A stretch of DNA of 64,000 nt from Candidatus Aminicenantes bacterium. Lineage in GTDB: Bacteria; Acidobacteriota; Aminicenantia; UBA2199. Shown here one piece after another: positions 6,234-42,391 of the stretch. The translations under genes and the position numbers were made by a program. Where the stretch lies: assembly GCA_029938635.1 (NCBI GenBank), contig JAOZUQ010000005.1, positions 1,363-65,362 of the forward strand, in the 5' to 3' direction. Below the pieces are notes generated by a model. The model saw only the letters and a list, made by a program, of their open reading frames with translations, made no database searches and had not been told where the DNA came from. Every line of letters begins with the position of its first letter. The first letter of the stretch is position 1.

Positions 6234-6472
6234 TCCGTTCAGATAGAAAAAGAATTATTTAGATATTATATATCACGAATGTTGTAAATTTGACCGGCTG
6301 GATCAGAGAAAATTGATTATCCAGCTACCCGCAATTATTCCAATGCTCATATATAGGAAAAGTTTGATCCCCTCTTTCCTTATCATTGCCTTATCATCAT
6401 GCCTGATAAATGCAATTATAGTAGAAACGATGCCTGAAAAAACCAGCATCGAGATCAGATGGCTTTTAAAGA

Positions 6473-13078: not shown

Positions 13079-14368
13079 TTATTCCGATTTTTTTTCTCTC
13101 TGGAATGTTGGTATATCCAATTCATCTTCAGTATTTTCAAGATTATGCTTCTTGGTCAATCCCGGAAAAGTCCCTTCATTTATATACCCCGGATTAACAT
13201 CCGTCAGATCTGCCGGAGTAATCGGCTTTTCAAATTGATAAGGAATACTTGACGGTGTATCCTTCCTTATAAAATCCTTGCTCGAAACATTGTCTGAATT
13301 ACTTCTGTGAGGCATATTTATAAGTGTAGGAGTAACCGGAAACAACTCCTCTTCACGCATCGTCTTTTTAATTTTATTTTTCTTCCCTGAATTCTCGAAG
13401 CCTGTAGCTATCACCGTTACCCGGATCATCTCGCCCATATTATCATCCTCAACTACTCCGAACTTACTCTTTACATCGGGAGATACTTCCGCATTGATCG
13501 TTTCTGCAATGATCTTCAGCTCATCACGCCTTAATGGAAGTGTGGACGATGTCGTTATATTAAAAAGAAGGCCAGTTGCTCCGCCAATAGATATGTTATC
13601 GAGTAATGGTGAATTAAGTGCTTTGTTTACAGCTTCCTCTGCTCTGTTCTCACCTTTAGACTCGCCTGTCCCCATCATCGTCATCCCCTTCTCTGCCATG
13701 GTTGTTTTTACATCGGCAAAATCAACATTCTGCATGCCGGAAGTGTTTATAATATCGGAAATACCTCTTACAGCACTCAGCAATACTTCATCAACCTTTT
13801 TATATGAATCTTTCAGCGGTATCTGCTCATCATCAATTTCAAATAATTTTTCATTGGGGATAACAATTATGGCATCGACACTTTCCAGAAGGCTTTTTAT
13901 TCCTGCCTCCGCAACTTCCATTCTATGCTTCCCCTCAAATTCAAAAGGTTTGGTCACAACGGCAACAGTAAGAATCCCCATTGATGCAGCATGATTTGCA
14001 ACAACCTGGGAAGATCCGGTTCCGGTTCCCCCTCCCATGCCGGCAGTGATGAAGATCATATCAGCGCCTTCCAGCATATCGGTTATCATCTCTGTACTTT
14101 CAAGAGCCGCTTTCATCCCTATTTCCGGATTCGAGCCGCTCCCCCTGCCTCTTGTAAGTTTCTCTCCAATCTGGAGGGTTAGTGATGGAGAATTAATATT
14201 GGATAAGTCCTGAGTATCGGTGTTTATCGCAATGAATTCCACTCCTGAGAGTTTTTCATCGATCATCCTGTTTATAGCATTCCCTCCGCCTCCTCCGAGG
14301 CCGAGCACTTTCAGAACAGCTCCATCCTTTCTCTTTTTCTTCAAAGTTATTTTAACTTCATCATTCAT
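13079..14368 (-). CDS. ftsZ: Cell division GTPase FtsZ
   Basis: 429 aa. GGGGGNA tubulin signature, full T7 loop region. Long low-complexity C-terminal linker before the conserved C-terminal peptide (DIPTFQREK). Confidence 0.95.
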   Translation of the reverse strand: MNDEVKITLKKKRKDGAVLKVLGLGGGGGNAINRMIDEKLSGVEFIAINTDTQDLSNINSPSLTLQIGEKLTRGRGSGSNPEIGMKAALESTEMITDMLEGADMIFITAGMGGGTGTGSSQVVANHAASMGILTVAVVTKPFEFEGKHRMEVAEAGIKSLLESVDAIIVIPNEKLFEIDDEQIPLKDSYKKVDEVLLSAVRGISDIINTSGMQNVDFADVKTTMAEKGMTMMGTGESKGENRAEEAVNKALNSPLLDNISIGGATGLLFNITTSSTLPLRRDELKIIAETINAEVSPDVKSKFGVVEDDNMGEMIRVTVIATGFENSGKKNKIKKTMREEELFPVTPTLINMPHRSNSDNVSSKDFIRKDTPSSIPYQFEKPITPADLTDVNPGYINEGTFPGLTKKHNLENTEDELDIPTFQREKKSE

Positions 14369-26569: not shown

Positions 26570-28654
26570 ATGGAAAATTTTTCAGAGAATGCCTTGAAAA
26601 TTCTACGGGCCAGATATTTCAAAAAAAATGCTGATGGGGAGCTGACAGAGAAAAAACCTTCCGACCTGTTCGAGCGGGTCTCAAAATATATAGCAAAAGC
26701 CGAAAAAAATGAAGATGACAGGAAATTCTGGGAGGATAAATTCTACAATTCCATGATGAACAGGGATTTCATGCCGAATTCTCCAACTCTTACAGGAGCG
26801 GATAGAGGAATGTGTCTCTCCGCCTGCTTTGTACTCCCGATCAAGGATTCACTTGAAAAGATCTTTGAAACAGTAAAAAATGCCGCCCTCGTTCACAAAG
26901 AAGGAGGTGGAACCGGATTTGACTTTTCACTTATAAGGCCTCAGGGTAGTTTTGTTAAAAAAACTCAGGGGATTGCCTCCGGGCCTGTTTCATTCCTTAA
27001 AGTAATAGATGCCGGCACTGAAGCTGTAAAACAGGGCGGGACAAGGCGTGGCGCCAACATGGGAGTTCTGAGAGTAGATCATCCCGATATCAAAGAATTT
27101 ATCACGATGAAAGATGACGGAAAAACAGCCCTGAACTTTAATATTTCCGTTGCAATTACAAATGATTTTATTGAAGCAGTTAAGAATAAAACAACTTATG
27201 ACCTGATCGATCCCAAGGACAATGAGGTCGTAGGGAAAATGTCCGCAACCGAAATAATGGAACTGATAGTGGATTCCGCCTGGAGGACAGGCGATCCGGG
27301 ACTGATATTCATTGATAAAGTGAATGAGTTGAATCCGACAAGAATGCAGGGGCCGATCAGAGCGACAAACCCCTGCGGAGAGCAGCCACTTCATGATTTT
27401 GAATCCTGTAATCTCGGATCCATTAATGTATCAAATTTTTTCTCACCTGATAAAGAGGATATGTTCGATTGGGAACGGTTTACAGAGATGATCCAGATGG
27501 GGATCAGGTTTCTGGATAATGTCATTGATGTTAACAAATACCCATTGAAAGAAATTGATAAAATAGCCAAAAGCAACCGGAGGATCGGACTGGGTATCAT
27601 GGGATTTGCAGATCTTCTTATCAAAAAAGAGCTCAGATATGATTCGGATGAGGCACTCGAATTCGGGAGAAAGATCGCAACTTTCCTAAGAAGTGAAGCG
27701 GAGAATGCATCAAGAGGCCTTGCGAAAGAAAGAGGTAACTTCCCGGGTATTGATCAATCGATATACAAAGGGAAACAGATGAGGAATGCAACAGTTCTTA
27801 CCATTGCCCCCACAGGAACAATCTCAAGGATAGCGGGCTGCTCATCCAGTATAGAGCCAGTATTTGCTTTTAAGATCATATCGAAGATCCTGGATAGTGA
27901 AATAAAGGATTTCCACCCGCTCTATCAGGAATGGGAAGAGAAACACGGAGATGAAGCGGTTCCTGAATATTTCATTTCAGCCTCTGAGATCTCACCTGAT
28001 AATCATATAAAAATGCAGGAAGTATTCCAGCTGAGTGTAGACAGTGCCGTTTCAAAAACAATCAATTTTGCAAACAATGCATCAAGAGAAGATATATCCG
28101 ATGCCTATATTATGGCATTCGGCATGGAAGTGAAGGGGATAACTGTATACAGGGACGGATGCCGTGCAATACAGGTGCTTAATAATATGGATAAAAAAGG
28201 CAATCCTGAGCCTCTCGGGAGGCCGGATTCACTCCCGTCAATGACTCATAAAGTTTCTACGGGACTGGGCAGGCTCTATATTACAATATCACACTTTAAT
28301 CATAAACCTTTTGAGGTTTTCTGTTCTATCGGTAAGAGCGGATATTCTACAATGGCAGATGCAGAAGCGATCGGAAGGCTTACATCACTGGCACTAAGAA
28401 GCGGCATCTCAGCTGAAGCGGTTGTGAGTCAGCTTAAAGGGATCGGTGGATCTGAACCGACCTTCCACAATGGAGCTTTGATCCAGTCCATCCCGGATGC
28501 AATAGCACAGGCTCTGGAAAAACATATTGGAGAGGTTATAACTAACAATCAGGATATGAACTCCATTACATGCCCGATGTGCGGAGCATCATTACCTGAT
28601 GAAAAGTGTCCGACCTGCCCGAATTGTGCATGGACAAAATGCGGCGGAACCTGA
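26570..28654 (+). CDS. nrdJ: Class II (adenosylcobalamin-dependent) ribonucleoside reductase
   Basis: 694 aa. N-terminal ...ILRARYFKK...FMPNSPTLTGA..., C-terminal Cys-rich zinc ribbon CPMCGASLPDEKCPTCPNCAWTKCGG. AGGAGG SD 5 nt before the ATG. Confidence 0.9.
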   Translation: MENFSENALKILRARYFKKNADGELTEKKPSDLFERVSKYIAKAEKNEDDRKFWEDKFYNSMMNRDFMPNSPTLTGADRGMCLSACFVLPIKDSLEKIFETVKNAALVHKEGGGTGFDFSLIRPQGSFVKKTQGIASGPVSFLKVIDAGTEAVKQGGTRRGANMGVLRVDHPDIKEFITMKDDGKTALNFNISVAITNDFIEAVKNKTTYDLIDPKDNEVVGKMSATEIMELIVDSAWRTGDPGLIFIDKVNELNPTRMQGPIRATNPCGEQPLHDFESCNLGSINVSNFFSPDKEDMFDWERFTEMIQMGIRFLDNVIDVNKYPLKEIDKIAKSNRRIGLGIMGFADLLIKKELRYDSDEALEFGRKIATFLRSEAENASRGLAKERGNFPGIDQSIYKGKQMRNATVLTIAPTGTISRIAGCSSSIEPVFAFKIISKILDSEIKDFHPLYQEWEEKHGDEAVPEYFISASEISPDNHIKMQEVFQLSVDSAVSKTINFANNASREDISDAYIMAFGMEVKGITVYRDGCRAIQVLNNMDKKGNPEPLGRPDSLPSMTHKVSTGLGRLYITISHFNHKPFEVFCSIGKSGYSTMADAEAIGRLTSLALRSGISAEAVVSQLKGIGGSEPTFHNGALIQSIPDAIAQALEKHIGEVITNNQDMNSITCPMCGASLPDEKCPTCPNCAWTKCGGT

Positions 28655-28656
28655 TT
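28605..28656 (+). repeat. Direct repeat copy 1 (last 16 codons + stop of nrdJ)
   Basis: AGTGTCCGACCTGCCCGAATTGTGCATGGACAAAATGCGGCGGAACCTGATT is identical to 36211..36262. Confidence 0.9.
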
Positions 28657-28661
28657 TGTTT

Positions 28662-29531
28662 TTAAAGAATCAATTGTCTTGTGGCAGAACCCGGGAAATT
28701 GGGATCAAAGCGAATTAACGACAATTCCGGCCCGTCATGAGATCCGTTGAAAGCCTCAGTTCTTCCGATTTTATCTCTCCACGACCCTGTCAATCTTGCA
28801 GATTCATGTACGTGTCCATGAAGAGTTAAAAGCGGCGATTTCTCCTCAATGAATCTTTTAATTGCAATACTTCCTATATTTACATCTAAAGGGACATGAT
28901 CAATCATTTTTCCATCCAGGGCTGCTCTGTCCAGACTGGTTTTATATGGCGGAGAGTGGAAAAGAAAGATCGACTTGGATAATTTTCGATTTTGCGTTAA
29001 TTCTTCAAGATCATCTGCAATTGTCCGGAATTTCAGGTCGTATTCTCGTACCGGAATTGAGAGCGCACCTTCATCCGGCGCCGTACACCCGGGATCAACA
29101 TACCGTGACACATCATACCTTTCCCAATCTTTCAATCTAAATGGTGAAGGGGGAATAAATGAGTACCCAAAAATAAGAAAAGAGTTCCAATTAATCATCT
29201 TATTATGAGCATAATGCCAAATTCCATCCATGGCTGCATCAAGAATTGTGGCCTCCTCCATTCTTCCATCATCATTCCCTAATATTATAAACACATCAGG
29301 ATATCTGCTTTTTAGTTTCTTTCTTATCCTCTGCAAGGTTTTTACAAGGAAATCATTAACAAAATCTTCATGCTGGAAATCCAGGGCAGTCAACGAAGAA
29401 AGAGGTGATGGTAACAGATCTCCTCCAAAAAAAACCGCAGCAGGAGACTCTGATAAAATCTTCTCAAACAAGATTTCATATTTCCTCACATCGCCATGGA
29501 GATCGGTCACAAAAAAGCAGGGCAAACTCAT
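28662..29531 (-). CDS. Calcineurin-like metallophosphoesterase
   Basis: 289 aa. MPE motifs DLHGD, GGDLLP, ILGNDD, FHSPPY, LHGHVHE. Stop codon is 7 bp from the convergent nrdJ stop. Confidence 0.8.
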   Translation of the reverse strand: MSLPCFFVTDLHGDVRKYEILFEKILSESPAAVFFGGDLLPSPLSSLTALDFQHEDFVNDFLVKTLQRIRKKLKSRYPDVFIILGNDDGRMEEATILDAAMDGIWHYAHNKMINWNSFLIFGYSFIPPSPFRLKDWERYDVSRYVDPGCTAPDEGALSIPVREYDLKFRTIADDLEELTQNRKLSKSIFLFHSPPYKTSLDRAALDGKMIDHVPLDVNIGSIAIKRFIEEKSPLLTLHGHVHESARLTGSWRDKIGRTEAFNGSHDGPELSLIRFDPNFPGSATRQLIL

Positions 29532-29601
29532 TTCGCTGCAAATATTAGAGCTCCTTGTTTAAAAAAAGATTAAAAAATACTCTGATAATCATTTTTTTAT
29601 A

Positions 29602-32600
29602 TCAGCTAACGCTGTTTTTCATTTTAAGTTCTCTTGCCGAATCCGTAACCGCATTTATCTTTACTGCAAAACTATTTTTCTCAGCAATCTCTTTATCTGA
29701 TATCAAATGGATATCAAGCAGTCCCTCTGTTTTGTATCCGGTCCTTTGATAGTTCAATTCAGCAAGTGTAAGACTCCATCCGTCAAGCCATAATAACAGA
29801 TCACTTTTTTGCCTTTTTGTTCCGTCAAAATGAACCAGCAGATCAATATCACTACAAGGCCCGGCTGTTGCATTTTTAGTACTTCCGAAAACATAGATAG
29901 CTTTTACCCCAAAACGATCCGGGTCTAAATTAGCACTGATCTGTTCGGCCATTCTCAATCTCCATTTCCAATAATCATCCGCAACAAAGAATGGGCCTGA
30001 TTTGATGTCATCCTGTTTTTCACTCACCTGATCAGTACCGGATTTCGTTATAACAGCAATTGCCTCCCCCAGGTCTGAGTTCATTAATATCTGCAATGGC
30101 TCTCCATCGCAATTATCAGGAACGTCAATTACTTTAACAACATTTTCCATATCTTTATATTCGGGGACAATATCACCCAATATGTTTTTTGACCTGAGAA
30201 AAAAATCTTCTTTAAATACTATATCTTTGTCATCAGGATAAAGTGGAAGATACCTTATCGAGGCTTCTACAAGATCTTGAAAAAAGTGTGTCCCGAATGA
30301 CAATTCGGGAGTATAATTCCCTTTGGACCTTGCAATTTCAATTAATGCAGCAGTATTATTAATGTCTGAATATGTAACATTAACTCCAAGTTTTATATCA
30401 CCCCTGGAACCCCATCTACCCGGCCCAAGTAATATGAATTGCCTTTTAGGCAGAATATTATTCAGTTTCCCGACTATTCTCCCGATCTTCTTAAGATCTT
30501 CAAGGTTTGATAGTTTTGAATATTCATTCGGATCAACGTAAACAACATGTGTAACATTAGGAATAAATCCATCTGAAATATATTTATTTCCTGTAAAAAT
30601 TATCCTTTCATGAGGAATATTCCGTGGTATTGGAACAGAATGTGTGCTATGGAAGTAACTTTGAGCTCTGCATTGTAAAAGATATAAATTTGTCCCGTCA
30701 TGGGCAAATTCAATATCAACCGGAGTCTTAAGTTTTGTTTTCAACGTATCCATCATCCAGTTCATTTGATTAAGGAACTCGGATCCTTCCAGAAACCCCT
30801 GAAAGTTAACTACCAATTCATCTTCCTTAAATTTAATATTAAAGGCAGAAGCAGGTTTCTGGATCATATCTTCTTTTACAACAGATACCATATTATGAAT
30901 TCCGGGGATTAATGCACCGTGAGATTTTAAAAAATCTTCGATTTCGATCGTTTCAAAAATATTACTTTCAAGATTCAGTACATCAATATTTTTTGGCGAA
31001 TATCTTATAACTTCATCAGGAGTTATATTTACATTTAACCCTGGTTTTTTAGGTGCAATCAGGATCGGATAATCCTCGGCAATCCTGTCTACCGCTCTTG
31101 TTCCCAGTCCGGGGACCAATCTTATAAGCCCGTCATCCCTTTTAATCCTGGGGGACCATCTGAATTCATTACTACTGAATGCAACACCGGCAAAACTCGG
31201 TAAAAAATATTTTCCGATTTTTGTACCTACGACCTCCTGAATAATAATCCCCATTTCTTCATTAAAATCTAATAGTTCACGTTCTGCCCTGTATTGGATA
31301 GGATCAGGCCCGAATATGGATGAATAGACCTCTGCAATTGCATCGGTCAGAGCATTTAATTTCATTTCAGCAGTGCCCTGATTAGCAAGAAATAAACTTT
31401 TATATTTCCCGGAAAAACTGGCTCCGACCCTGTCTTCCAACAAACTTGAACTTCGGACAATAATCGGATTATCACCAAAATATTCAATAACCACTTTTAA
31501 TCCTCTCAGAATTTCAGGAGGAAATTGAGAGTTTTTTAAGATTTGTATAATATTAGGGTATTCCAGATGAATTTCACCTATATCCTTATATTTTTGCTCA
31601 TAGACATTCTCCAGATTATTATAGTGCAAAAAGTCGATTAATCCATCTGAAGTGATATACCATGTTTTTGGAATTTTAATCTTATGGGGAAACTTATCAA
31701 ACCCTGCAGAATTTTTTATAATGCTTGCGGCAAGAAAAAGGCCGGAACTTTTCCCCCCCAGTTTACCGAAACTATTTGAAGGAGACAGGATCTGTTTTAT
31801 AACACTAAAAAAATCCTCCAGATTTATATTATCTTTTGCAATTTTTATAAATTCCATTTGATCTGACAAGATCTTTCTGATAACGGAAGTTTTTATACTT
31901 TTTTCAGTTGCTGGTGACAATTTGACCTTTCCACTATTTAAAAATTTAAACCGTGTCAATGCGTTAATTATGTCAACAAGAGAGGAATTCGGATTTTCCA
32001 GGATAGTAACAAGAAATCTGGATTTCTCCTCATCAATCCAATTTCTGATAAGAGGCATTATATATTCATCAGCAAAATTTTTTGAAGCCAGGTCAAAAAT
32101 ATCATTACTAAATGAAATAATTTGATCCATCGAATCTTTTCTGGATGGTTGATTGATATCTTCAAAAAATACACTATTCTCACTTTTATTCTCAACTTCT
32201 TCATAGGTTTGAATTAATATGTCATTCGCTTCTGTAATGCTGTTTAAAAGGAGGTGATAAAGCATTTTTCTGGATATATATATATACAATTTAAGATTTG
32301 AATCTTTGAGCAGGTCTACGATCACCCGCCACTGAGGGCTTGATTCTAAAGCGATCTTTTCATCTGCTCTCTCCCATTTATTATGAATGCTTTTCAATTT
32401 TGAGTATAGGAAAACATGGCTTAATCTCTCAGCAATTGATTTGATCAATTGTCTCTCTTCCTTTAAAAACAAATTATCGATAGCTTCGTTTATTTTTCCT
32501 TTATAGGAAATAGTTATTTCGCCTGTTTCTTCTCCCTGAATTCTGATTTTTGCAGAAAGACTTTTTGAAGTTTCTTCATAATCTTCAAAACGATATTCCT

Positions 32601-32808
32601 GGCTTTCATAATCAATCTTTGCCTGAGCATTTTTTGGGAATTGCATCCCTTCAGGAATTGTTCTGATCACTGCATAGATAAGTTCATCAAGTGCTAATTC
32701 ACTATTTTCTAAAATCTCCTCGATACGATAGAGACAATTTAATTCCTTTTGCCTTTCCTGTAGAGAATGTAATAAAGTACTCGAATCTTTTTTTTTTGAA
32801 TCATTCAT
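29602..32808 (-). CDS. Multidomain protein: N-terminal helical region + PEP/pyruvate-binding (PPDK_N-like ATP-grasp) domain + C-terminal minimal nucleotidyltransferase (Pol-beta-type) domain
   Basis: 1068 aa. Middle region ...SFGKLGGKSSGL...IVRSSSLLEDRVGASFSGKY...GIIIQEVV... resembles the nucleotide-binding domain of PEP synthase/PPDK. C-terminus ...IYVFGSTKNATAGPCSDIDLLVHFDG... carries the hG[GS]-x(9-13)-DhD NTase signature. 4-nt overlap with the upstream paralog. Confidence 0.75.
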   Translation of the reverse strand: MNDSKKKDSSTLLHSLQERQKELNCLYRIEEILENSELALDELIYAVIRTIPEGMQFPKNAQAKIDYESQEYRFEDYEETSKSLSAKIRIQGEETGEITISYKGKINEAIDNLFLKEERQLIKSIAERLSHVFLYSKLKSIHNKWERADEKIALESSPQWRVIVDLLKDSNLKLYIYISRKMLYHLLLNSITEANDILIQTYEEVENKSENSVFFEDINQPSRKDSMDQIISFSNDIFDLASKNFADEYIMPLIRNWIDEEKSRFLVTILENPNSSLVDIINALTRFKFLNSGKVKLSPATEKSIKTSVIRKILSDQMEFIKIAKDNINLEDFFSVIKQILSPSNSFGKLGGKSSGLFLAASIIKNSAGFDKFPHKIKIPKTWYITSDGLIDFLHYNNLENVYEQKYKDIGEIHLEYPNIIQILKNSQFPPEILRGLKVVIEYFGDNPIIVRSSSLLEDRVGASFSGKYKSLFLANQGTAEMKLNALTDAIAEVYSSIFGPDPIQYRAERELLDFNEEMGIIIQEVVGTKIGKYFLPSFAGVAFSSNEFRWSPRIKRDDGLIRLVPGLGTRAVDRIAEDYPILIAPKKPGLNVNITPDEVIRYSPKNIDVLNLESNIFETIEIEDFLKSHGALIPGIHNMVSVVKEDMIQKPASAFNIKFKEDELVVNFQGFLEGSEFLNQMNWMMDTLKTKLKTPVDIEFAHDGTNLYLLQCRAQSYFHSTHSVPIPRNIPHERIIFTGNKYISDGFIPNVTHVVYVDPNEYSKLSNLEDLKKIGRIVGKLNNILPKRQFILLGPGRWGSRGDIKLGVNVTYSDINNTAALIEIARSKGNYTPELSFGTHFFQDLVEASIRYLPLYPDDKDIVFKEDFFLRSKNILGDIVPEYKDMENVVKVIDVPDNCDGEPLQILMNSDLGEAIAVITKSGTDQVSEKQDDIKSGPFFVADDYWKWRLRMAEQISANLDPDRFGVKAIYVFGSTKNATAGPCSDIDLLVHFDGTKRQKSDLLLWLDGWSLTLAELNYQRTGYKTEGLLDIHLISDKEIAEKNSFAVKINAVTDSARELKMKNSVS

Positions 32809-34553
32809 TTAAAGATCACTCCCTCACTTTTTCTCCCGTCAACTTTAATTTTCATAGGAGATTTTAATTTTATATGGCGGATATATTTCCCTTTCCATTT
32901 TATTTCTTGTTGACCCAACCAGTCCCAGTCAATGGGGATCCGGCTTTTCGTTGAAATTGAAAAATAAAAAATTCCGAGATTTGAAATATTATGGAAAAAA
33001 TGTGACCCTTGGCTCATATCAACAAATACACTTGCCAGAGAAGATTCGATTATCACTTCTGCTCCTGAAATCTCACCCCAGGTCACAGGAATTCCCAGCC
33101 ATGGATCAGATGAACCCCACCTTCCGAATCCGATCAAAGTATAATTTTCGTTTTCATTTACCAGGGTTCTGTTTACCATTGCAATCTCAGAAGCAATTTC
33201 TCTCGTATTTTTCAGATTGAAGGTCTCCGGCATAACATAAACGATATCTCTAATGTTATCTTTCTCACCATTGCCTAAAATGTTGTCTCCTGCAGTTAAA
33301 ACTGTTTCAGGGCTCCAACTCTCTTTTTCTGTATCCACAGGGTTGGAAAATGTCGCCATCGGGCGTACCTGCAACAAACTGAATTTATTCTTATCAGAGA
33401 TACTTTGCCCCAAAGATATGGCAAACTCAATCTCCACATCTGAGTTAAAATGAGATTCACATAGTTTTAAAATATCAATGATCAAATCATTCACAGGCAA
33501 TAATTTACTCTGAAGGATAGGGGCAAAATTTATCAACCTTGCACCCTTGTTTGCCACACCTATATCAAACCTGTCCGATTCATAATTGTAAGTGGAAGCA
33601 ATTTTTGATAATGAATTGTCATATTCCGCATCATTTATTGATAATTGAATTAGATATTCAGTTTCTTTGATCGGATCATAGGTCTTTATTTCACCCATAT
33701 TTACTGCCCAGAATTCTGTTTGAGATTGTTTCAGCAGATCATTAGCACTATTAAAAGGTGGTGGCGCATCGGGATATATCGGGCAATAATCCCATGAATT
33801 TCCTCCATCTACGATTGATTTGCCCAAACCCAAAGCTAAGCTGACCACACCATCTTCGGGTTCCGAATGCCCGGATGTATAAAAATTATAAGATTTAGCA
33901 ACTCCTGATATATTCGGATAGAACCTGTTATGATGTTGTTGTCCTACAACTTCCTGAATAATAACACCCATTTTTTCTTCATTTATATCTTTTCCTGTTG
34001 ATTTCAGATATGTTTTTGCATTAATGAAAAATGTTGATGAATAAATAAATTTTATTGCTTCTACAAGTTTTTTAAATCTTACATCAGGGTCCGGATGATT
34101 GTTCGGGATCATTTTTGTTTCATAAACACCTGCAAGTGGAATATTCAAGCTGTCTTCCAGAAGACTTGAAGATCTTATTGCGAGAGGCAATTTCATTTTT
34201 TCAATCAATCCTCTTATATCTCCCGATAACCTGACAGGTAACTCGGAATTCAAAAAATGATGTGCAATTCGTTCATCACTTTGCTCTGATAATGCAACTT
34301 TATACAGATTGTTCTGCTTCAGGAATTCATCAAAATATTGAGTTGTGATAACAATTGTCCTGGGAATACTAATTTCGAATTTCAGATCTTTTTCTTCATC
34401 TCCATATGAAAGTAATTTATTCCGGATTTTTGCCAATCCACCGGCTTTTCCGCCAAATTGACCTTTTCCGATAAATGTAAAATCATTGGATTCATCATAA
34501 AAATCCCTGTTAAAAGGGTTAATTCCTTCTAAGTGATTATCTGATCCTTCCAT
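32805..34553 (-). CDS. PEP/pyruvate-binding (PPDK_N-like) domain protein, paralog of the central domain of 29602..32808
   Basis: 582 aa. ...GKGQFGGKAGGLAKI...LAIRSSSLLEDS...GVIIQEVVG...GFGRWGSSDP... parallels motifs in the neighbouring 1068-aa protein (GGKSSGL, VRSSSLLED, IIQEVVG, GPGRWGSRGD). No PEP-utilizing His domain or TIM-barrel. Confidence 0.75.
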   Translation of the reverse strand: MEGSDNHLEGINPFNRDFYDESNDFTFIGKGQFGGKAGGLAKIRNKLLSYGDEEKDLKFEISIPRTIVITTQYFDEFLKQNNLYKVALSEQSDERIAHHFLNSELPVRLSGDIRGLIEKMKLPLAIRSSSLLEDSLNIPLAGVYETKMIPNNHPDPDVRFKKLVEAIKFIYSSTFFINAKTYLKSTGKDINEEKMGVIIQEVVGQQHHNRFYPNISGVAKSYNFYTSGHSEPEDGVVSLALGLGKSIVDGGNSWDYCPIYPDAPPPFNSANDLLKQSQTEFWAVNMGEIKTYDPIKETEYLIQLSINDAEYDNSLSKIASTYNYESDRFDIGVANKGARLINFAPILQSKLLPVNDLIIDILKLCESHFNSDVEIEFAISLGQSISDKNKFSLLQVRPMATFSNPVDTEKESWSPETVLTAGDNILGNGEKDNIRDIVYVMPETFNLKNTREIASEIAMVNRTLVNENENYTLIGFGRWGSSDPWLGIPVTWGEISGAEVIIESSLASVFVDMSQGSHFFHNISNLGIFYFSISTKSRIPIDWDWLGQQEIKWKGKYIRHIKLKSPMKIKVDGRKSEGVIFK

Positions 34554-34644
34554 TAAATTAATTTCCCCTCTGCGAAATTTAATATTTTAAAATAATAATT
34601 CAATTATTATGAATTATGCAAAGTTAATGATATTGGAAAGTTTC

Positions 34645-34680
34645 TTTTTTTTCAATAATAGAGGGGGTTTCCCCCCTCCA
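34645..34680 (-). terminator. GC-rich hairpin downstream of gdhA (probable terminator)
   Basis: GAGGGGG-ttt-CCCCCCTC perfect hairpin in AT-rich DNA about 35 nt past the gdhA stop. A run of T precedes it on the plus strand. It is followed by UAUUAUU on the minus-strand transcript. Confidence 0.5.
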
Positions 34681-34712: not shown

Positions 34713-36032
34713 TTAAATCCAGCCTCTGTTTTTACAAGCCAGATTTACTCTGTCTATTGCAATAACATAAGCAGCATCCCTCATATACAAATCTCTCTCT
34801 TTAGCCATTTCACTAACGGCAATGAAAGCAGCGGTCATCTTAGAATCCAGTTTCCCGAGAACCTCATCTTTTGACCAGAAATAGTTCATATTGCACTGGA
34901 CCTGTTCAAAATAACTGCAGGTTACTCCGCCGGCATTTGCAAGAAAATCAGGAATCATAAATATTCCCTTCTCTTTTATAACCTGGTCTGCTTCAGGGGT
35001 TGTCGGGCCGTTTGCCCCTTCAGCGATTATTTTTACTCTGGCTCCGATCTTTTTAACTGAATCTTTATTGATCTCATTTTCAAGAGCAGCAGGCATTAAA
35101 ATATCTACATCCTGCTCAATCCATGCATCTCCGGGTAATACTTCATACCCCAGAGTTTCTGCTTTTTCTTTATCAATTCCACCATAATTATCAGTGATAC
35201 CCAACAATTCTTTCAGATTTATTCCGGATTTATTACGGTATGTAAACCCTTTCTGCTCTTTCTGGCTCCAACTGGAAACAGATATAACCTTACCTCCATA
35301 TTGCTCATAAAGTTGAATTGCGTATTGGGAAACATTGCCAAACCCCTGAAAACTGGCAGTCGTATCTTCCGGGCGAATACCTAATTCTTTCAAGGCTTCC
35401 CGGAGAGTAAAGATTACTCCATAACCTGTTGCTTCAGTTCTTCCCAGTGAACCACCCATTCCTACTGGCTTTCCGGTTATAAACCCGGGATATTTCTCTC
35501 CACGAATTGTCTCATATTCATCAAGCATCCACAGCATATGCTGAGCATTCGTCATAACATCAGGAGCTGGAATATCTGTGATCGGTCCAACATTCTTTGC
35601 TAACTGGCGGACCCAACCTCTGCATATTCTTTCCTGCTCATTTTTACTGAGATTATGAGGATCACATATAACTCCGCCCTTTCCTCCACCGAGAGGAATA
35701 TCCACTACTGCGCACTTCCATGTCATCCACATAGATAATGCTCTCACAGTATCAATTGTCTCCTGCGGGTGAAAACGGATACCCCCTTTCCCGGGTCCTC
35801 TTGCATCATTATGTAGAACTCTGAAGCCTCTGAAAACCTTTTTGCTCCCATCATCCATTGTGATAGGGATACTAAAATGAAATTCACGCAAAGGTTCCCT
35901 CAAAAAATCTTTTGTGGCCTGGTCAAGACCTAATATCTCGGCCACTCCGTCAAATTGTTCCTGAGCTGTTTCAAAAGCATTATAGTTTTTGTTTTCCAAA
36001 TCTAGCCTCCCTGAAATTATTTTTTTTATCAC
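34713..36032 (-). CDS. gdhA: NADP-specific glutamate dehydrogenase
   Basis: 439 aa. Glu/Leu/Phe/Val DH signature ...VDIPLGGGKGG..., NAD(P) Rossmann GFGNVSQY. Confidence 0.95.
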   Translation of the reverse strand: MIKKIISGRLDLENKNYNAFETAQEQFDGVAEILGLDQATKDFLREPLREFHFSIPITMDDGSKKVFRGFRVLHNDARGPGKGGIRFHPQETIDTVRALSMWMTWKCAVVDIPLGGGKGGVICDPHNLSKNEQERICRGWVRQLAKNVGPITDIPAPDVMTNAQHMLWMLDEYETIRGEKYPGFITGKPVGMGGSLGRTEATGYGVIFTLREALKELGIRPEDTTASFQGFGNVSQYAIQLYEQYGGKVISVSSWSQKEQKGFTYRNKSGINLKELLGITDNYGGIDKEKAETLGYEVLPGDAWIEQDVDILMPAALENEINKDSVKKIGARVKIIAEGANGPTTPEADQVIKEKGIFMIPDFLANAGGVTCSYFEQVQCNMNYFWSKDEVLGKLDSKMTAAFIAVSEMAKERDLYMRDAAYVIAIDRVNLACKNRGWI

Positions 36033-36210: not shown

Positions 36211-36262
36211 AGTGTCCGACCTGCCCGAATTGTGCATGGACAAAATGCGGCGGAACCTGATT
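36211..36262 (+). repeat. Direct repeat copy 2 (orphan fragment of nrdJ 3' end)
   Basis: 52/52 identical to 28605..28656. Not in frame with any start codon, so not a coding duplicate. Sits upstream of gdhA and beside a GC-rich terminator. Confidence 0.9.
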
Positions 36263-36275
36263 CAATCTAATTTAT

Positions 36276-36312
36276 TCTCAAAATAAGAAGGGCGGGGCTG
36301 ATGCCCCGCCCT
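36276..36312 (-). terminator. Rho-independent terminator of 36354..37445 (possibly bidirectional)
   Basis: GGGCGGGGC-tgat-GCCCCGCCC hairpin followed on the minus strand by UUCUUAUUUU. Confidence 0.65.
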
Positions 36313-36353: not shown

Positions 36354-37445
36354 CTATTTATAATTGGTACCTATCGGCCCATCCACAAGAAGCTTTATCT
36401 GATATATAATAGTGTCACCCGGTGTCACTTTCCATTCAATGCCTGTGGTCCAGTCGGATGATCCCACAGGGAGAGCTGGTGAAGGATTCTTAATTATTTC
36501 ATCACTTGAAGTCTTTTTCCACTGATGTTTTACCATTTTCTTAAATACCCATCCGTTCTTCAGAGAAATGTGATATGAATCAGTCCCTTTATCATCACCT
36601 ATTGCTCCCCACATGTTCTTATGAAAACCGCCTATAGCAATCTCAGGCCCGTCGGTGACATTGCAGGCATCAAAATTACTATCATCCCCACAGTGAAGAC
36701 AGGTTACATCCCCAAAGGCCACCCATTTTTCCTCTCTCCCTTTGAACTGGGGTTTACCGAATGGATCGCTTTTAAAATTAAACTTAGATACAACAACCAC
36801 ACTGACAATCTGGTTCGGCTGGCCGTTGGCAGACTGCGGAATATATCCATTTGCTCTTTCATTACCTTCCCATGTGACATTTTCAAGCTCAATATGCCCC
36901 CCCGGGAAATTTCCCTTAATAAGGATCCTTCCTTTCTGGGGTCCGAAAATTTTTCCCTTGACAAACAACTGAGTTCCAGACTGTAATGCACCCAGTGGAA
37001 TCGGCAATATAGATTCAACAACAGGCTTAAACATCCCCGGTTTGGGTTTGAACTGTGGTTTTTTCTTTATTTTCTTAATCACACCGGGATTGATAAGGAA
37101 TTTAGTCTTAATTTCGAATTCATTACTATCCCCTAGACATGTGTTCTCAGCTTTCACCCTTATCACATAGGTCCCTGCTTCAAAATCTGCAGGAATTTTC
37201 CAGTTCTTTTGGGTCACTCCGGAAGCAGTAAGCTGAAGTTTGAAATTAGCCTGATCGACACTCCCCTTGAAAATATTGATCTTATAATCCGTTTCCTGAC
37301 ACCCGTTTGGCGTCCATTTGATTAAATAAGTATTTCCCTTGAACCAGCCAACACTCCCGTCAGGTTTATTAACAGTAATTGCTGCTCCTGATACCTGAAA
37401 AACACCAAAAATCACCAACAATAAAACTAAATAAAACTTTTTCAT
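36354..37445 (-). CDS. Secreted protein with Kre9/KNH-like (Ser/Thr-rich GPI-anchored family) beta-sandwich domain; paralog of 39498..40634
   Basis: The ORF extends to 37529, but the likely start is ATG at 37445 (MKKFYLVLLLVIFGVFQVSGA signal peptide, AAGGAGATGG SD). Domain ITVNKPDGSVGWFKGNTYLIKWTPNG...YKINIFKG...QLTASG...GTYVIRVKAE...GDSNEFEI fits the Kre9_KNH pattern. Confidence 0.7.
   Translation of the reverse strand: MKKFYLVLLLVIFGVFQVSGAAITVNKPDGSVGWFKGNTYLIKWTPNGCQETDYKINIFKGSVDQANFKLQLTASGVTQKNWKIPADFEAGTYVIRVKAENTCLGDSNEFEIKTKFLINPGVIKKIKKKPQFKPKPGMFKPVVESILPIPLGALQSGTQLFVKGKIFGPQKGRILIKGNFPGGHIELENVTWEGNERANGYIPQSANGQPNQIVSVVVVSKFNFKSDPFGKPQFKGREEKWVAFGDVTCLHCGDDSNFDACNVTDGPEIAIGGFHKNMWGAIGDDKGTDSYHISLKNGWVFKKMVKHQWKKTSSDEIIKNPSPALPVGSSDWTTGIEWKVTPGDTIIYQIKLLVDGPIGTNYK
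36725..37382 (-). repeat. ~650-bp near-identical nucleotide block shared with 39916..40569
   Basis: Hand alignment shows >90% nucleotide identity across the N-terminal halves of the two paralogous genes. The spurious 105-aa ORFs at 36704..37021 and 39893..40210 are near-identical for the same reason. Confidence 0.85.
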
Positions 37446-37488
37446 TTTTCCATCTCCTTTTGAATTTATTTGTTCATCTGAATTAACT

Positions 37489-39345
37489 TTAATCCTTTTC
37501 GAGGATCTCAATTTTAAGTTTAATTCCATTCAGAAAAATCTTGCATTTGGATTGATTGTGCTGGAAACTTTCATCCGGTCCGACAAACATTATTCCGTGA
37601 TTGCTGTTCGGGAAGCCCATCCATCCCTGGGCAGCAGTAGTCATATTCGATTTTGGATCAGGTATCAGGCCCATATTAACAATAAAACCATCACTAAAAG
37701 GAGCGTTAACTTTGTAAACCGACACATTGCAATCCACAGGGTAATAGGTTTTATTATACTTAAGCTTTGCGCTCAGGATAATACCTTTCCCCTTGAATTG
37801 TTTAAGATCGAAATATGCATGGGTTCTCCATATATCGCCGTAATAGGTCTTCCCGTGATTAGCCGCATAATTTGAATATCCGGTCCATCCCTGAGAACTC
37901 CCCCCGGCCGCCACACAGCCGCCTACCTGGGACTCCAAGTGAGCCAGATTACCAGCATCTACCGCCCAGGTAGATCTTTTGCAATAATTTCCGAACGAAC
38001 CGTTTATCTCATAAGTTTTTACTTTGGTTCCTATCTGGACCGTGAACATTCCACTTTTGCCTGATGCTTTGCCGTCTGTCCTGGATATTTTTATTACATA
38101 TTTTGCCGGGCCGGTACCTTTGGGAATGAACCAGTTGTATGTTGATGTATCCGGAGGTTTACCTCCCCCTTTGTAAAGCTTTACTACATTTACACCAAGG
38201 ATAGTTTTTATTGTTCTTACGAATGTATTTCCTGAATAATTATAAAGATCTATCTTTATTGTATTTTTCTTTGTAAATTTATTTTTCCATTTAATAAGGT
38301 GGGTTTTACCTTCCTTCCAGAAACTTGATGTTGACGGCTTTAATATTTCTATATTACCATGAATGGGCGTAATTACCATTTCCGGGGTGATCTGAAATTT
38401 TGGCTTGATCATGAATGGGTCCGAATCATCTGTCACCTGATCATCGCTCATGATCCTCAGGCGATATGTCCCGGTCGCATAATTTCCCGGTATCTTCCAG
38501 CTTTTTGACCCGTTGTTGGATCCGGTCAATTGCTCAAGAAAATTTGGCTGGGAAATAACTGAACCTCTATAGATGTTGATCTTAACACCTGCAGATTGCT
38601 GCCCGGTCTTGTCCCATGTTATTAAATTTGTGATCCCTTTTCTCCAGATTGTGCTGGAGTCAGGTTTTAAAATTGTGATCGACGGTTCTTCTTCCGGTAG
38701 TGCATCTTCGATAACAAGTAATCCGCTGTCACCGACACATAAGTTGTCATCGGTCTTAATCCTTATATAATAGTTCCCCGGATCAAAAGTATTCGGGATC
38801 GTCCAACTTTTTGTATTTGTACCTGAAGCTGTCAATTGAAGCTTAAAGTTCGACTGATTGATACTATCTTTAAAAATATTGATCTTATAACTGGTAACCG
38901 AACAATTTGTCGGGACCCATGTAATTGAATGTGTGGAACCTTTTTTCCAGACCGCCCCCGGCCCGGGACTGGTAACTGTAATTGAGGCTGATTGAGGTTT
39001 ATCTGCAATAATAAATAATCCACTATCTCCTACACACAGGTTGTCATCCGTTTTGACCCTTATAATATAATTTCCTGAGTCAAAGGTGCCCGGTATCGTC
39101 CAGCTTTTTGTATTTGTGCCTGAAGCAGTCAGTTGAAGCTTAAAGTTCGGCTGACTGATACTATCTTTAAAAATATTGATCTTATAACTGGTAATCGAAC
39201 AATTTGACGGAGTCCAGGTGATGTTGTGAGTGTCACCTTTGTACCAGGTAACTCCATTCCCGGGAGCTGTAACATTAATACTCTGTGACCAGATCACTCC
39301 GCTAAAAAACATAATTAGTAATAATAATATCCTGAATTTTTTCAT
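37489..39345 (-). CDS. Secreted protein with three tandem Kre9/KNH-like ~90-aa repeats plus a distinct C-terminal domain
   Basis: 618 aa with signal peptide. Repeats NVTAPGNGVTWYKGDTHNITWTPSNCSITSYKINIFKDSISQPNFKLQLTASGTNTKSWTIPGTFDSGNYIIRVKTDDNLCVGDSGLFII (x2 almost identical), then a third, more divergent copy. Confidence 0.75.
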   Translation of the reverse strand: MKKFRILLLLIMFFSGVIWSQSINVTAPGNGVTWYKGDTHNITWTPSNCSITSYKINIFKDSISQPNFKLQLTASGTNTKSWTIPGTFDSGNYIIRVKTDDNLCVGDSGLFIIADKPQSASITVTSPGPGAVWKKGSTHSITWVPTNCSVTSYKINIFKDSINQSNFKLQLTASGTNTKSWTIPNTFDPGNYYIRIKTDDNLCVGDSGLLVIEDALPEEEPSITILKPDSSTIWRKGITNLITWDKTGQQSAGVKINIYRGSVISQPNFLEQLTGSNNGSKSWKIPGNYATGTYRLRIMSDDQVTDDSDPFMIKPKFQITPEMVITPIHGNIEILKPSTSSFWKEGKTHLIKWKNKFTKKNTIKIDLYNYSGNTFVRTIKTILGVNVVKLYKGGGKPPDTSTYNWFIPKGTGPAKYVIKISRTDGKASGKSGMFTVQIGTKVKTYEINGSFGNYCKRSTWAVDAGNLAHLESQVGGCVAAGGSSQGWTGYSNYAANHGKTYYGDIWRTHAYFDLKQFKGKGIILSAKLKYNKTYYPVDCNVSVYKVNAPFSDGFIVNMGLIPDPKSNMTTAAQGWMGFPNSNHGIMFVGPDESFQHNQSKCKIFLNGIKLKIEILEKD

Positions 39346-39419
39346 GTAATTCTCCTATTTATATAGATAAAACTTTTAGTATTAATATCTCAAAAATAAT
39401 TTATCATGTAACTAATTCT

Positions 39420-39453
39420 GAGATAAGAGAAGGCGGGGCATTGAGCCCCGCCC
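39420..39453 (-). terminator. Rho-independent terminator of 39498..40634
   Basis: GGCGGGGC-attga-GCCCCGCC hairpin, same family as the hairpin at 36290-36312. Confidence 0.6.
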
Positions 39454-39497
39454 TGTACTTTATGATTCAACAACCAAATGCATCAAAAATATATATA

Positions 39498-40634
39498 TTA
39501 TTTATAATGAGTGCCGAGGGGTCCTTCGACAATTATTTTAATCCTGTACCGGACATTGTCATTAGGTGTTACTTTCCAGTGAACAATAGCACTCCAGTTC
39601 GGTTGACCAGCTGGAAATGAAGGGGTAGGACCTGACAACACTTCATCCCCTGAACTCTTAGACCACTCAACTTTCTGCATACTTTTCAGGACCCAACCGT
39701 TTTTAAGACTAATTGAGTAGACATCATCTCCCACATCATCACCTATGGCTCCCCATACGTTTGAATGATAACCACAAATCGCATAAGCTGTAGCACATCC
39801 CACAGTAAATTCCTCTCCTGGCCAGATATCACCACTTCCAGATGAAACACCATTACAAACATTACTGTTACCATCATTTCCGCAACTGACACCTACTGCA
39901 TCAGCAGTAAGCACTTTTTCTTCTCTCCCCTTGAACTGGGGATTACCGAATGGATCGCTTTTAAAAGTAAACTTAGATACAACAACCACACTGACAATCT
40001 GGTTCGGCTGACCGTTGGCAGACTGAGGAATAAATCCATTTGCCTTTGAATTAATTTCCCATGTGACATTTTCAAGCTCAATATGCCCCCCCGGGAAATT
40101 ACCCTTAATAAGGATCCTTCCTTTCTGGGGTCCGAAATTTTTTCCCCTGACAAACAACTGAGTCCCAGGTTGTAACGCACCCAGTGGAATCGGCAATATA
40201 GATTCAACAACAGGCTTAAACATCCCCGGTTTGGGTTTGAACTGCGGTTTCTTCTTGAACTTCTTAATCACATCAGGATTGATATAGAATTTGTTTTTTA
40301 TCTCAAACAGTTTGCTATCCCCTAGACATGTATTCTCAGCCTTAACCCTGATCACATACATCCCTACTTCAAAATCTGCAGGGATTTTCCAGTTCTTTTG
40401 GGTCACTCCGGAAGCAGTAAGCTGAAGTTTGAAATTTGCCTGAAGGACACTCCCCTTGAAAATATTGATCTTATAATCAGTTTCCTGACATCCGTTTGGC
40501 GTCCATTTGATTAAATAAGTATTTCCCTTGAACCAGTCAACACTCCCATCCGGTTTGTTGACAGTAATGGATCCAGGAAAGATCAAGCCTGTACAAATCA
40601 AAATAGTAATAAATAAAACTGATAATTTTCTCAT
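39498..40634 (-). CDS. Secreted Kre9/KNH-like domain protein, paralog of 36354..37445
   Basis: 378 aa with signal peptide. N-terminal ~220 aa nearly identical to 36354..37445. C-terminal Cys/Gly-rich region diverges. Confidence 0.75.
   Translation of the reverse strand: MRKLSVLFITILICTGLIFPGSITVNKPDGSVDWFKGNTYLIKWTPNGCQETDYKINIFKGSVLQANFKLQLTASGVTQKNWKIPADFEVGMYVIRVKAENTCLGDSKLFEIKNKFYINPDVIKKFKKKPQFKPKPGMFKPVVESILPIPLGALQPGTQLFVRGKNFGPQKGRILIKGNFPGGHIELENVTWEINSKANGFIPQSANGQPNQIVSVVVVSKFTFKSDPFGNPQFKGREEKVLTADAVGVSCGNDGNSNVCNGVSSGSGDIWPGEEFTVGCATAYAICGYHSNVWGAIGDDVGDDVYSISLKNGWVLKSMQKVEWSKSSGDEVLSGPTPSFPAGQPNWSAIVHWKVTPNDNVRYRIKIIVEGPLGTHYK
39916..40569 (-). repeat. Second copy of the ~650-bp near-identical block (partner of 36725..37382)
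   Basis: See 36725..37382. Confidence 0.85.
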
Positions 40635-41281: not shown

Positions 41282-42391
41282 CTAGTAATTCTCCAGACGT
41301 GTCAATGTGGTGCTCAATTCAAGTACTTCCACCGGGCAATCCTTCCATCCACTTTCCCAGCATACAAGTAGTTCGCAGTTCTTCGTAAGCCTTTCGTTTT
41401 TTTTCAGATCGAGACTGTTTAGCGCAAATCCAAGGTTAACAGCTTCCCATTTTTCCTCTTCAGACGACTTGTTTCTTTTCCCTGAGAAACAATACCGGTC
41501 TAACCCGAAAGACTCAACTATAAAGTTCAACTCTTCACAAACCACTCCGAATATAAATATCACTCCCCGTGTATCGATCGGAGCAAATTTAATTCCTCTG
41601 AAATTCAGTGGGTTACCCTTTTCTTTTTCAGATTTTGTAATTGCAGGCTTAATAGTTTCAGGAATTATTTTTTTCTTCTTCTTTTTCTGAACATCCATAG
41701 CCATCAGGTTCTCGATCCCACCACCATCATCCGGAACATAATCAAAACTGGGCTCCGACTCTTCTTTACTCTTCCTGCTCTTCTCCTTATTTTCGATCTC
41801 ATCAATTGTAAGGATATTATCACTTCCGAAATTATCGCTGAATTTATCCGATTCGGATTTTTCAATGCCCATTTCATTTTTTTTAATGGAAACAAGTGTC
41901 TCCTCAAAATTTATCTTTGACTTCTTTTTGCTATCCTTTTTTTTGGTAACCATAATCGTTTTATCAGGAGAAACAATCTCGATAGGCCCTTCATCCATCA
42001 CAATGGTTTTATCAGGAGATGGCGCCGATTTCCGGTCATACTTGGATTTAGCAAGATTAAGTGCATCAGTAAGAGTTCTCCACCTCTGCTCATAATCTTC
42101 TTTTGAATATCTTCCGTTCTTTTCTATTAATGCATATGTAGGAGTTTCTCCGAACTCCTTCTCAATCCTGAGCAGGTCTTTAAGCAGGTCCTTATCTTTG
42201 ACCTCTTCAACAAAAGTCCCGTCTTCAAGTCCTGCTTCCCTCAGGGCATCATGCCATGAGCTGATATAGAAATTTATTGTACTAACAGGGATCATTGTAT
42301 TCTTTATGAAGTCTTTTTTCTTAAGGCTACTGGTTTTAAGGTTGGATGCCACCCTTTTTATCTCTTCTATGATCTGATTTTTATCATACAT
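41282..42391 (-). CDS. Hypothetical protein: two globular domains joined by a Lys/Glu/Ser-rich low-complexity linker
   Basis: 369 aa. Long KK/EE/SD-rich central region. C-terminal ~110 aa carries conserved Cys/Trp (..LLVCWESGWKDCP..). 2-nt spacing to the upstream purA. Confidence 0.55.
   Translation of the reverse strand: MYDKNQIIEEIKRVASNLKTSSLKKKDFIKNTMIPVSTINFYISSWHDALREAGLEDGTFVEEVKDKDLLKDLLRIEKEFGETPTYALIEKNGRYSKEDYEQRWRTLTDALNLAKSKYDRKSAPSPDKTIVMDEGPIEIVSPDKTIMVTKKKDSKKKSKINFEETLVSIKKNEMGIEKSESDKFSDNFGSDNILTIDEIENKEKSRKSKEESEPSFDYVPDDGGGIENLMAMDVQKKKKKKIIPETIKPAITKSEKEKGNPLNFRGIKFAPIDTRGVIFIFGVVCEELNFIVESFGLDRYCFSGKRNKSSEEEKWEAVNLGFALNSLDLKKNERLTKNCELLVCWESGWKDCPVEVLELSTTLTRLENY

Follow-up and report, generated by a model that had tools for sequence, protein, structure and literature searches.

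Why would two paralogous ATP-grasp proteins, one of them fused to a nucleotidyltransferase, be encoded together with a phosphoesterase beside a gene for glutamate dehydrogenase (GDH)? This question is raised by four genes in a 64,000-nucleotide stretch of Candidatus Aminicenantes bacterium DNA (contig JAOZUQ010000005.1 of assembly GCA_029938635.1), which we analysed as a whole and refer to here as the window. The four genes are designated A, B, C and gdhA. A and B carry the N-terminal, nucleotide-binding domain of pyruvate phosphate dikinase (PPDK; Pfam family PPDK_N), and C encodes a metallophosphoesterase. The adjacency of gdhA is the strongest functional clue to the module. We tentatively propose that the module is a signal-gated covalent-modification cycle acting on GDH, which would combine phosphoryl transfer through a phosphohistidine, AMPylation by the minimal nucleotidyltransferase (MNT) domain of B and removal of the marks by C. 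GDH is a candidate target, proposed from genomic linkage only.

Genomic linkage of A and B to glutamate dehydrogenase

Relatives of B occur in at least 531 species in a scan that took one genome per species. The best 80 of these provided the loci for a gene-neighbourhood census, which was run by tblastn with A, B, C and GDH of the window. Of the 74 informative loci, 71 have an ortholog of this GDH (64–80% identical) no more than 3.5 kb upstream of B, and 68 have it in the same orientation as B. A is the immediate upstream neighbour of B in 62 of 78 loci. C stands immediately downstream of B in 40 of 68 informative loci and is convergent with it, on the opposite strand, in 36 of those 40; the co-directional C of the window is the minority layout. 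On these counts the conserved unit is gdhA–A–B, with C as a frequent, separately transcribed fourth member. Clustering of all open reading frames (ORFs) in the census loci revealed no other conserved neighbour. In a reverse look-up, three of three C homologs taken from C’s own matches adjoin B, or an A–B fusion, and GDH.

The initial annotation of the window had taken A, B and C as a three-gene operon, which these counts do not bear out as the unit, and had raised the possibility that the trio is conserved across phyla and enriched in defence islands. Conservation across many phyla holds for A–B with GDH, joined by C in part of the loci, and the context is housekeeping rather than defence. The adjacency of gdhA, which it had also recorded, was recovered, with gdhA as the upstream neighbour of A, as was a 4-nucleotide overlap of the two PPDK_N genes (ATGA, at the stop codon of A), with which the ORF coordinates agree. 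In several lineages A and B are fused into one protein of ~1630 residues. From this translational coupling and fusion we infer that A and B act together. Between gdhA and A, a terminator-like hairpin and a promoter-like match suggest that A–B may be expressed separately from gdhA. No general control by sigma54 was seen: only 5 of the 80 loci have an enhancer-binding protein encoded within 10 kb, and sigma54 promoter-like motifs were found upstream of GDH in 2 of 68 loci, with none near gdhA in the window.

The family is large. Database relatives of B number in the thousands, the best 120 being full-length, 49–100% identical and generically named, and relatives of A and C are likewise numerous and carry generic names only. 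B relatives form 828 representative clusters (50% clustering, E ≤ 1e-30), and across phyla B homologs are 47–60% identical over their full length. The best 80 include Aminicenantes, Acidobacteriota, Planctomycetota, Ignavibacteria/Melioribacteraceae, Calditrichota, Spirochaetota, Cloacimonadota and Zixibacteria, along with Krumholzibacteriota, Eisenbacteria, Fermentibacteria, Fibrobacterota, Myxococcota, Bacillota and Anaerolineae. Among the matches listed, the closest genome is a metagenome-assembled genome of Candidatus Aminicenantes (locus L006), whose B is 88% identical.

A second module, present in at least seven loci, repeats the association with a different GDH. Here an E. coli-type NADP-GdhA gene is followed by one for a paralog of ~995 residues, A', in which a response-regulator receiver domain and a linker, with a DUF5752-like match, precede an A-type PPDK_N domain and the C-terminal domain; in four loci a co-directional C comes next. 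This GdhA scores 757 bits on NF006929, above the cut-off, and is only ~34% identical to the GDH of the window. The second module often abuts or converges on gdhA–A–B, and in L035 the order is GdhA'–A'–GDH–A–B on one strand, with C convergent. That two GDHs of ~34% identity each have their own paralog argues for a protein-specific partnership rather than a shared small substrate. Since two isozymes are paired in this way, the arrangement is the strongest argument that A-family proteins work on, or with, GDH itself.

Two leads around these GDH genes were set aside. Streptomycin-adenylyltransferase-like and DUF2383 genes stand beside the second module in L044 and are not conserved elsewhere. A trans-acting segment reportedly present downstream of Bacteroides thetaiotaomicron gdhA was dropped because that gdhA, if it is BT1970, does not lie beside an A'-type gene (BT1969 encodes a malic enzyme, BT1971 a catalase).

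The window GDH has its best Protein Data Bank (PDB) matches in the Thermococcus and Pyrococcus enzymes (E 1e-124). Compared with these, the GDHs linked to A and B have two insertions, at residues ~240–255 and ~279–283 of the window protein. An insertion with the consensus S-c-W-d-Q...Y directly follows the second Rossmann strand, at the site that sets coenzyme specificity; we speculate that it could be a docking or modification site.

The four genes also appear to have been inserted at this position as a single unit. Exact copies of a 52-nucleotide direct repeat bracket C–B–A–gdhA, in agreement with the repeat-bracketed segment reported earlier, and the 7.6 kb between them have a G+C content of 36.4% as against 38.6% for the whole window. 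The flanking genes, for a class II ribonucleotide reductase (RNR) and a 391-residue protein, are absent from all related loci, including L006, the closest relative among the matches listed, where the cassette lies at a different locus. There, a 76-nucleotide direct repeat (4781–4856 and 14159–14234, copies 74% identical), unlike the window repeat in sequence, brackets a PAS-sigma54 enhancer-binding protein gene (5034–6320, minus strand), a small ORF and GDH–A–B–C. No integrase was found inside the bracketed segment of the window. As the four genes appear to have been inserted as one unit, we treat them as one functional cassette. The RNR gene itself (26570–28654, plus strand) encodes a TSCPD domain and a Cys-rich C-terminal tail (ending in CPTCPNCAWTKCGGT before the stop codon), and it is the tail-coding end that is duplicated in the 52-nucleotide repeat.

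Domain architecture of A, B and C

Pfam searches agree with the domains first called in the three proteins: PPDK_N in A (E 5e-39) and B (E 3e-53), NTP_transf_2 in B and Metallophos in C. The motifs quoted for A and B at that stage (GGKAGGL/GGKSSGL, [IV]RSSSLLED, IIQEVVG and G[FP]GRWGS) are all present, and invariant or nearly so among homologs. Alignments of the A and B paralogs show the ATP-site motifs (GGK, RSS, E and QxR) to be invariant in both. None of the three proteins matched a PDB entry in sequence searches, and profile searches gave, apart from weak matches for C, rifampin phosphotransferase (RPH) only, over the RSS region. By Foldseek, the nearest structures to A and B are RPH, HpeI, phosphoenolpyruvate (PEP) synthase and PPDK.

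The AlphaFold model of A, built on a 150-sequence alignment, is confident (pLDDT 88.8, pTM 0.89) and collinear with PPDK over ~690 columns (1kbl, E 4.5e-10). It shows ATP-grasp and carrier-like domains only; neither A nor B has a recognisable acceptor-binding domain. The C-terminal domain of A, which has a homolog in B, holds the most conserved motifs of the family, G[FP]GRWGS and [QF]G[ST]HFF, and a His that never varies (H518 of A, H841 of B). Neither protein matches PF00391 (PEP-utilizers), hhalign detected no similarity between this domain and canonical PPDK carrier domains, and no gathered locus encodes a canonical GGxTSH protein. The domain is probably a very divergent phosphohistidine-type domain with the fold of the PPDK phosphoryl carrier. 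Because it is unrelated in sequence to the canonical carrier domain, its invariant His is a putative phospho-carrier, assigned by inference. The initial annotation had denied A and B both a phosphohistidine swivel and a PEP/pyruvate TIM barrel; the latter is indeed missing (neither matches PF02896), whereas the former has to be reconsidered given the probable divergent fold match. The carrier-like domain is the last one in A, whereas in B it is followed by the MNT domain.

For B, the AlphaFold model is moderate only (pLDDT 68.8), and residues 796–859, its most conserved segment, are modelled poorly (pLDDT < 50). Owing to this, the fold of residues ~730–920 is taken from A. Foldseek with the model returned RPH, HpeI, PEP synthase and PPDK for the ATP-grasp domain and MNT/MntA minimal nucleotidyltransferases for the last ~120 residues (2rff, 8xeh, 7bxo). 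The Pol-beta-type nucleotidyltransferase first seen as a short motif is corroborated by Pfam, by the predicted structure and by an invariant catalytic motif. NTP_transf_2 (E 1e-7) and Polbeta (E 1e-6) match around residues 965–1013, both PF01909 and PF18765 score above their cut-offs, and G975-S976, D987-x-D989 and D1032 are invariant in 26 sequences from several phyla. The domain has the hG[GS]-x(9-13)-DxD pattern, the downstream acidic residue and the Pol-beta fold of MNT proteins; on the NCBIfam MntA model NF047752 it scores 22.4 bits, below the cut-off of 60.

The N-terminal part of B, first described as a helical extension, is not simply helical. Its first ~140 residues gave weak GAF matches in Foldseek (4g3v, E 0.097, prob 1.0), and the module, for which Pfam has no model (ER.KEL.CLY...), is GAF-like. 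In BLASTP it aligns with the N-termini of histidine kinases at 30–33% identity (E 6e-19 and 3e-23, in L063 and L068). These kinases are paired with NtrC-type sigma54 activators and encoded a few kb from gdhA–(A)–B, and this recurrence marks the N-terminus of B as a true input module for signals. Some members of the family lack the MNT domain (~920 residues), and some have other N-termini (~770–880 residues); Pfam typing of the variant N-termini in ten family representatives returned nothing beyond PPDK_N. In one long-read assembly (L087 9857–13052, minus strand) the B ortholog is split into ORFs of 573 and 496 residues, a pattern that a frameshift, faulty assembly or a gene that is truly split might each explain.

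C scores 31.1 bits on Metallophos (PF00149, E 4e-7) against a cut-off of 21.5. Its predicted metal-binding residues D10, H12, G36-G37-D38, G85-N86-D87-D88, H192 and H238-G-H240-x-H242 are invariant in 22 sequences, and with these motifs C is, by sequence, a calcineurin-like metallophosphoesterase. The third metal motif is a GNDD variant in place of GNH[DE]. This variant is found in diesterase-type members such as YfcE and MJ0936. PDB sequence and profile searches yielded no close solved relative of C, the latter giving weak matches to aq_1956 and YfcE only.

A candidate modification cycle and its alternatives

A cycle of modification and reversal had been suggested from the outset, within a three-gene operon and with GlnE/GlnD-type regulation or nucleotide-based defence or signalling modules as parallels. 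The cycle stays the most attractive reading, and the operon and defence framings have been given up. In our proposal, a signal received by the N-terminal domain of B, or by the receiver domain of A', would gate the ATP-grasp domain. This domain would phosphorylate the His of the carrier domain from ATP, yielding AMP and Pi as in dikinases, and the carrier domain would hand the phosphoryl group to GDH, standing in for the missing acceptor domain. The MNT domain may put a second mark, AMP, on GDH or on the A/B complex, and C would hydrolyse the mark and reset the system. In net effect, the activity of GDH at the glutamate/2-oxoglutarate/ammonium node would be switched reversibly in response to a signal, with a logic resembling that of GlnE on glutamine synthetase or AceK on isocitrate dehydrogenase. 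In favour of such a cycle, enzymes that AMPylate proteins, MntA for one, are among the characterised proteins most closely related to the MNT domain. We regard it as possible, if somewhat doubtful, that the module constitutes a new kind of regulatory system for GDH. We are equally guarded about the fuller claim that A and B are the first protein modifiers of the dikinase fold, with GDH phosphorylated, AMPylated by MNT and cleared by C, in the catabolic and the NADP-dependent anabolic isozymes alike.

Several observations weigh against the proposal. To our knowledge, no PPDK_N enzyme phosphorylates a protein in trans, the characterised ones using small molecules or glucans. The carrier-domain assignment derives from the fold, and the invariant His may lie off the canonical position. 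The linked GDHs look like ordinary hexameric enzymes, with two small, clade-specific insertions only. In ~40% of loci C is not found close by, and where present it mostly has the opposite orientation. Because the MNT domain is missing from some members and from the A' module, AMPylation cannot be the core activity.

The known chemistry of the fold lends itself to the main, though rather unlikely, alternative, in which A and B form a small-molecule dikinase (X + ATP + H2O -> X-P + AMP + Pi) in a route with GDH. Glutamate, 2-oxoglutarate, the nicotinamide cofactor or some intermediate are candidates for X. In such a route an activating phosphate, present only transiently, would be taken off by C as the phosphatase of the pathway, while MNT would transfer a nucleotide to this metabolite or to a related one. 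Action on small molecules or glucans is common to all characterised PPDK_N enzymes, the nearest structures are the four enzymes named above, and the adjacency to GDH could reflect a common substrate. AcvAB/AcvF and phenylphosphate synthase/carboxylase are precedents for a dikinase and a phosphatase in one catabolic operon (bioRxiv 10.1101/2022.04.28.489975), and a PPDK-like kinase is known that forms an N–P bond on an amino group (PMC6482885). Such an enzyme is, however, hard to reconcile with the absence from A of a recognisable acceptor-binding domain, and no further pathway enzyme is conserved nearby. A common metabolite would not require that two GDH types catalysing the same reaction each have their own paralog, and both GDHs look canonical. 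Domains of the sensor and receiver kinds typically belong to regulators and not to enzymes of a pathway, and a kinase and a phosphatase acting on one metabolite with no step between them would be a futile cycle. Improbable, in our judgement, is a system that makes and degrades a nucleotide-derived signal, or senses energy charge: the ATP-grasp/His unit and MNT would be the synthase, C would be a phosphodiesterase, and the signal would act on GDH allosterically, or on nitrogen-related transcription, in place of a covalent change to GDH. The combination of sensor, nucleotidyltransferase and phosphoesterase is in keeping with this, as are the GNDD motif of C, a variant that occurs in diesterase-type members, and its weak aq_1956 and YfcE matches; a convergent, separately transcribed C would suit a synthase/hydrolase pair under different control. 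Against these stand the dispensability of MNT in many members and its absence beside A', the lack of any known messenger synthase that brings these folds together, two paralogous His-bearing dikinase units that are hard to rationalise for messenger synthesis, and the absence of an effector or receptor candidate except GDH.

That the trio is mobile defence or toxin–antitoxin-like cargo merely travelling with gdhA seems to us highly improbable, even with the perfect repeats around the four genes, their lower G+C content and the different location in the closest relative (among the matches listed). In PADLOC-DB, A has no match, B matches over only ~35 residues of the nucleotidyltransferase core (PDC-S09) and C over only 58 residues (PDC-S10). 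These weak hits to candidate-system models fall on a generic nucleotidyltransferase core and on a portion of the Metallophos fold; a HEPN partner, an integrase and phage genes are all lacking, and the neighbouring genes are housekeeping ones. One copy per genome beside a core enzyme in more than 500 species, at 47–60% identity across phyla, speaks for slow, housekeeping-like evolution, which sets the module apart from defence genes. The earlier suggestion of a defence or signalling island has accordingly been abandoned. Some sources do name homologs ‘pyruvate, water dikinase’, and PPDK_N is the sole strong Pfam match; the view that they are themselves PEP synthases or PPDKs, whether ordinary, split or degenerate, is nonetheless refuted for A and B, as far as we can judge beyond reasonable recovery. 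They lack the TIM barrel and GGxTSH, and they score 34–54 bits against equivalog cut-offs of 598–883 (at best 54 against 598 and 46 against 883 among TIGR01418, NF005057, NF004881 and other curated models), and the 582- and 1068-residue architectures are intact in hundreds of species. That neither protein is a PEP synthase or PPDK had been stated from the first and is upheld here.

GDH stands at the junction of carbon and nitrogen metabolism. Bacterial glutamine synthetase has a well-understood covalent switch (GlnE/GlnD/PII), and we know of no dedicated modifying system for bacterial GDH. Were the cycle on GDH real, it would represent a new regulatory principle and a new role for the PEP synthase/PPDK fold, namely protein-directed phosphoryl transfer, and would offer a handle on how ammonium release and assimilation are controlled in uncultured, protein-fermenting bacteria. 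The switch would then serve many, mostly uncultured, phyla; carriers include lineages that are abundant in sediments, soils and bioreactors (Aminicenantes, Acidobacteriota, Ignavibacteria, Planctomycetota, Calditrichota, Cloacimonadota). Should the small-molecule alternative be true, an undescribed ATP-consuming reaction would operate at the glutamate/2-oxoglutarate node.

Genomic context and relation to known systems

Coordinates of the features are collected in Table 1. The window is ordinary chromosomal DNA of ~39% G+C. The A–B–C genes are flanked on one side by the RNR gene and a dcw cluster (mraZ, rsmH, a penicillin-binding protein gene and others) and on the other by gdhA; further housekeeping genes elsewhere in the window include glmS, UDP-glucose dehydrogenase, purA and peptidases. 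It contains no tRNA genes or Rfam matches. Beyond the right repeat, at 36354–40634 (minus strand), three consecutive genes encode proteins of 391, 618 and 378 residues with Kre9_KNH/Ig-like, GEVED and MG2-type domains. They have long internal DNA repeats in common (for example, 300 nucleotides at 93% identity, 36726–37025/39915–40214; 279 nucleotides at 78%, 38704–38982/39001–39279) and are probably recently duplicated surface or secreted proteins. A 369-residue ORF with homing-endonuclease-associated HNH_repeat domains lies at 41282–42391 (minus strand).

Table 1. Positions of the cassette, its predicted domains and related features (window numbering unless a census locus is named).
Feature	Residues	Position (nt)	Strand	Description and basis
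Left 52-nt direct repeat		28605-28656	+	last 52 nt of class II RNR gene, including stop codon
Gene C	289 aa	28662-29531	-	calcineurin-like metallophosphoesterase; ORF, Pfam Metallophos; motifs DxH, GGD, GNDD, H192, GHVH
Gene B	1068 aa	29602-32808	-	ORF, Pfam PPDK_N, NTP_transf_2 and Polbeta
B, MNT-type Pol-beta nucleotidyltransferase	945-1068	29605-29976	-	G975 S976, D987xD989, D1032
B, homolog of the C-terminal domain of A	~730-920	30049-30621	-	GPGRWGS; invariant T840-H841 in LSFGTHFFQDL, His codon 30286-30288
B, PPDK_N ATP-grasp nucleotide-binding domain	350-721	30646-31761	-	Pfam, Foldseek
B, GAF-like sensor module	~10-140	32389-32781	-	motifs ER.KEL.CLY, IP.G[WM]Q[FY]P, FLKEE
Gene A	582 aa	32805-34553	-	ORF, Pfam PPDK_N
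A, probable swivel-like C-terminal domain	418-582	32808-33302	-	invariant H518, codon 33000-33002
A, ATP-grasp nucleotide-binding domain	32-407	33333-34460	-	Pfam
gdhA/A intergenic signals		34627-34676	-	terminator-like hairpin 34676-34662, then sigma70-like promoter match 34655-34627; consensus scans only
gdhA		34713-36032	-	hexameric GDH, Pyrococcus/Thermotoga type; Pfam ELFV_dehydrog_N and ELFV_dehydrog
Right 52-nt direct repeat		36211-36262	+	orphan copy of RNR 3' end, just before strong hairpin 36289-36312
Second module (GdhA', A', C)		L044 13855-19149	-	also L003, L008, L022, L035, L047, L051, L062
Histidine kinases with B-type N-terminal sensor, and NtrC-type regulator		L012 2902-6154; L063 5235-7876; L068 19171-22272		

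Neither the module nor the link between gdhA and PPDK_N is described in any curated family, PDB entry, defence model or publication that we found; a mention of PPDK_N in ProFaNA concerns SelO neighbourhoods. The fusion had been put forward as one without a described family, and this stands: sources give generic names, no PDB sequence matches exist and no paper was found. The folds are known and the system is new, its architecture and GDH link being undescribed. Like PEP synthase and PPDK, A and B have an ATP-grasp domain with GGK, RSS, E and QxR; a collinear domain, probably of the carrier (swivel) fold, follows it. They differ in having no TIM barrel, in carrying GRWGS and G[ST]HFF instead of GGxTSH, and in the added sensor and nucleotidyltransferase domains and the GDH linkage. 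In RPH, phenylphosphate synthase, AcvAB/AcvF and HpeHI, unlike A and B, a domain or subunit is dedicated to binding the small molecule, and the His domain is canonical. RPH and the aryl dikinases are without a GDH link or sensor and MNT domains, and the phosphatase of the aryl-dikinase systems belongs to the HAD family, whereas C is a metallophosphoesterase. A and B reach 13–24 bits on RIF_Ptrans_rph (cut-off 999) and 41–49 on PigC (cut-off 1300).

The type VII toxin–antitoxin system MntA–HepT offers a likeness for the C-terminal domain of B, which has the same fold and motif as MntA, an enzyme that AMPylates a protein. In B, however, the nucleotidyltransferase is fused to a 940-residue enzyme and is optional in the family, and no HEPN gene lies near B in the window or the census loci. 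With GlnE/GlnD the likeness is one of logic only, in that a Pol-beta nucleotidyltransferase, a reversing activity and a signal input would converge on an enzyme of ammonium assimilation. The module has neither the tandem nucleotidyltransferase of GlnE nor the nucleotidyltransferase, HD and ACT domains of GlnD (no Pfam or NCBIfam matches). Its core is dikinase-like, the mark would be taken off by a metallophosphoesterase of its own and not by phosphorolysis as in GlnE, and its GDH target is a proposed one. AceK, finally, is dedicated to phosphorylating and dephosphorylating a dehydrogenase at the 2-oxoglutarate node, a kind of cycle that A, B and C may run as well; it differs in being a single bifunctional protein of unrelated fold, with a proven target.

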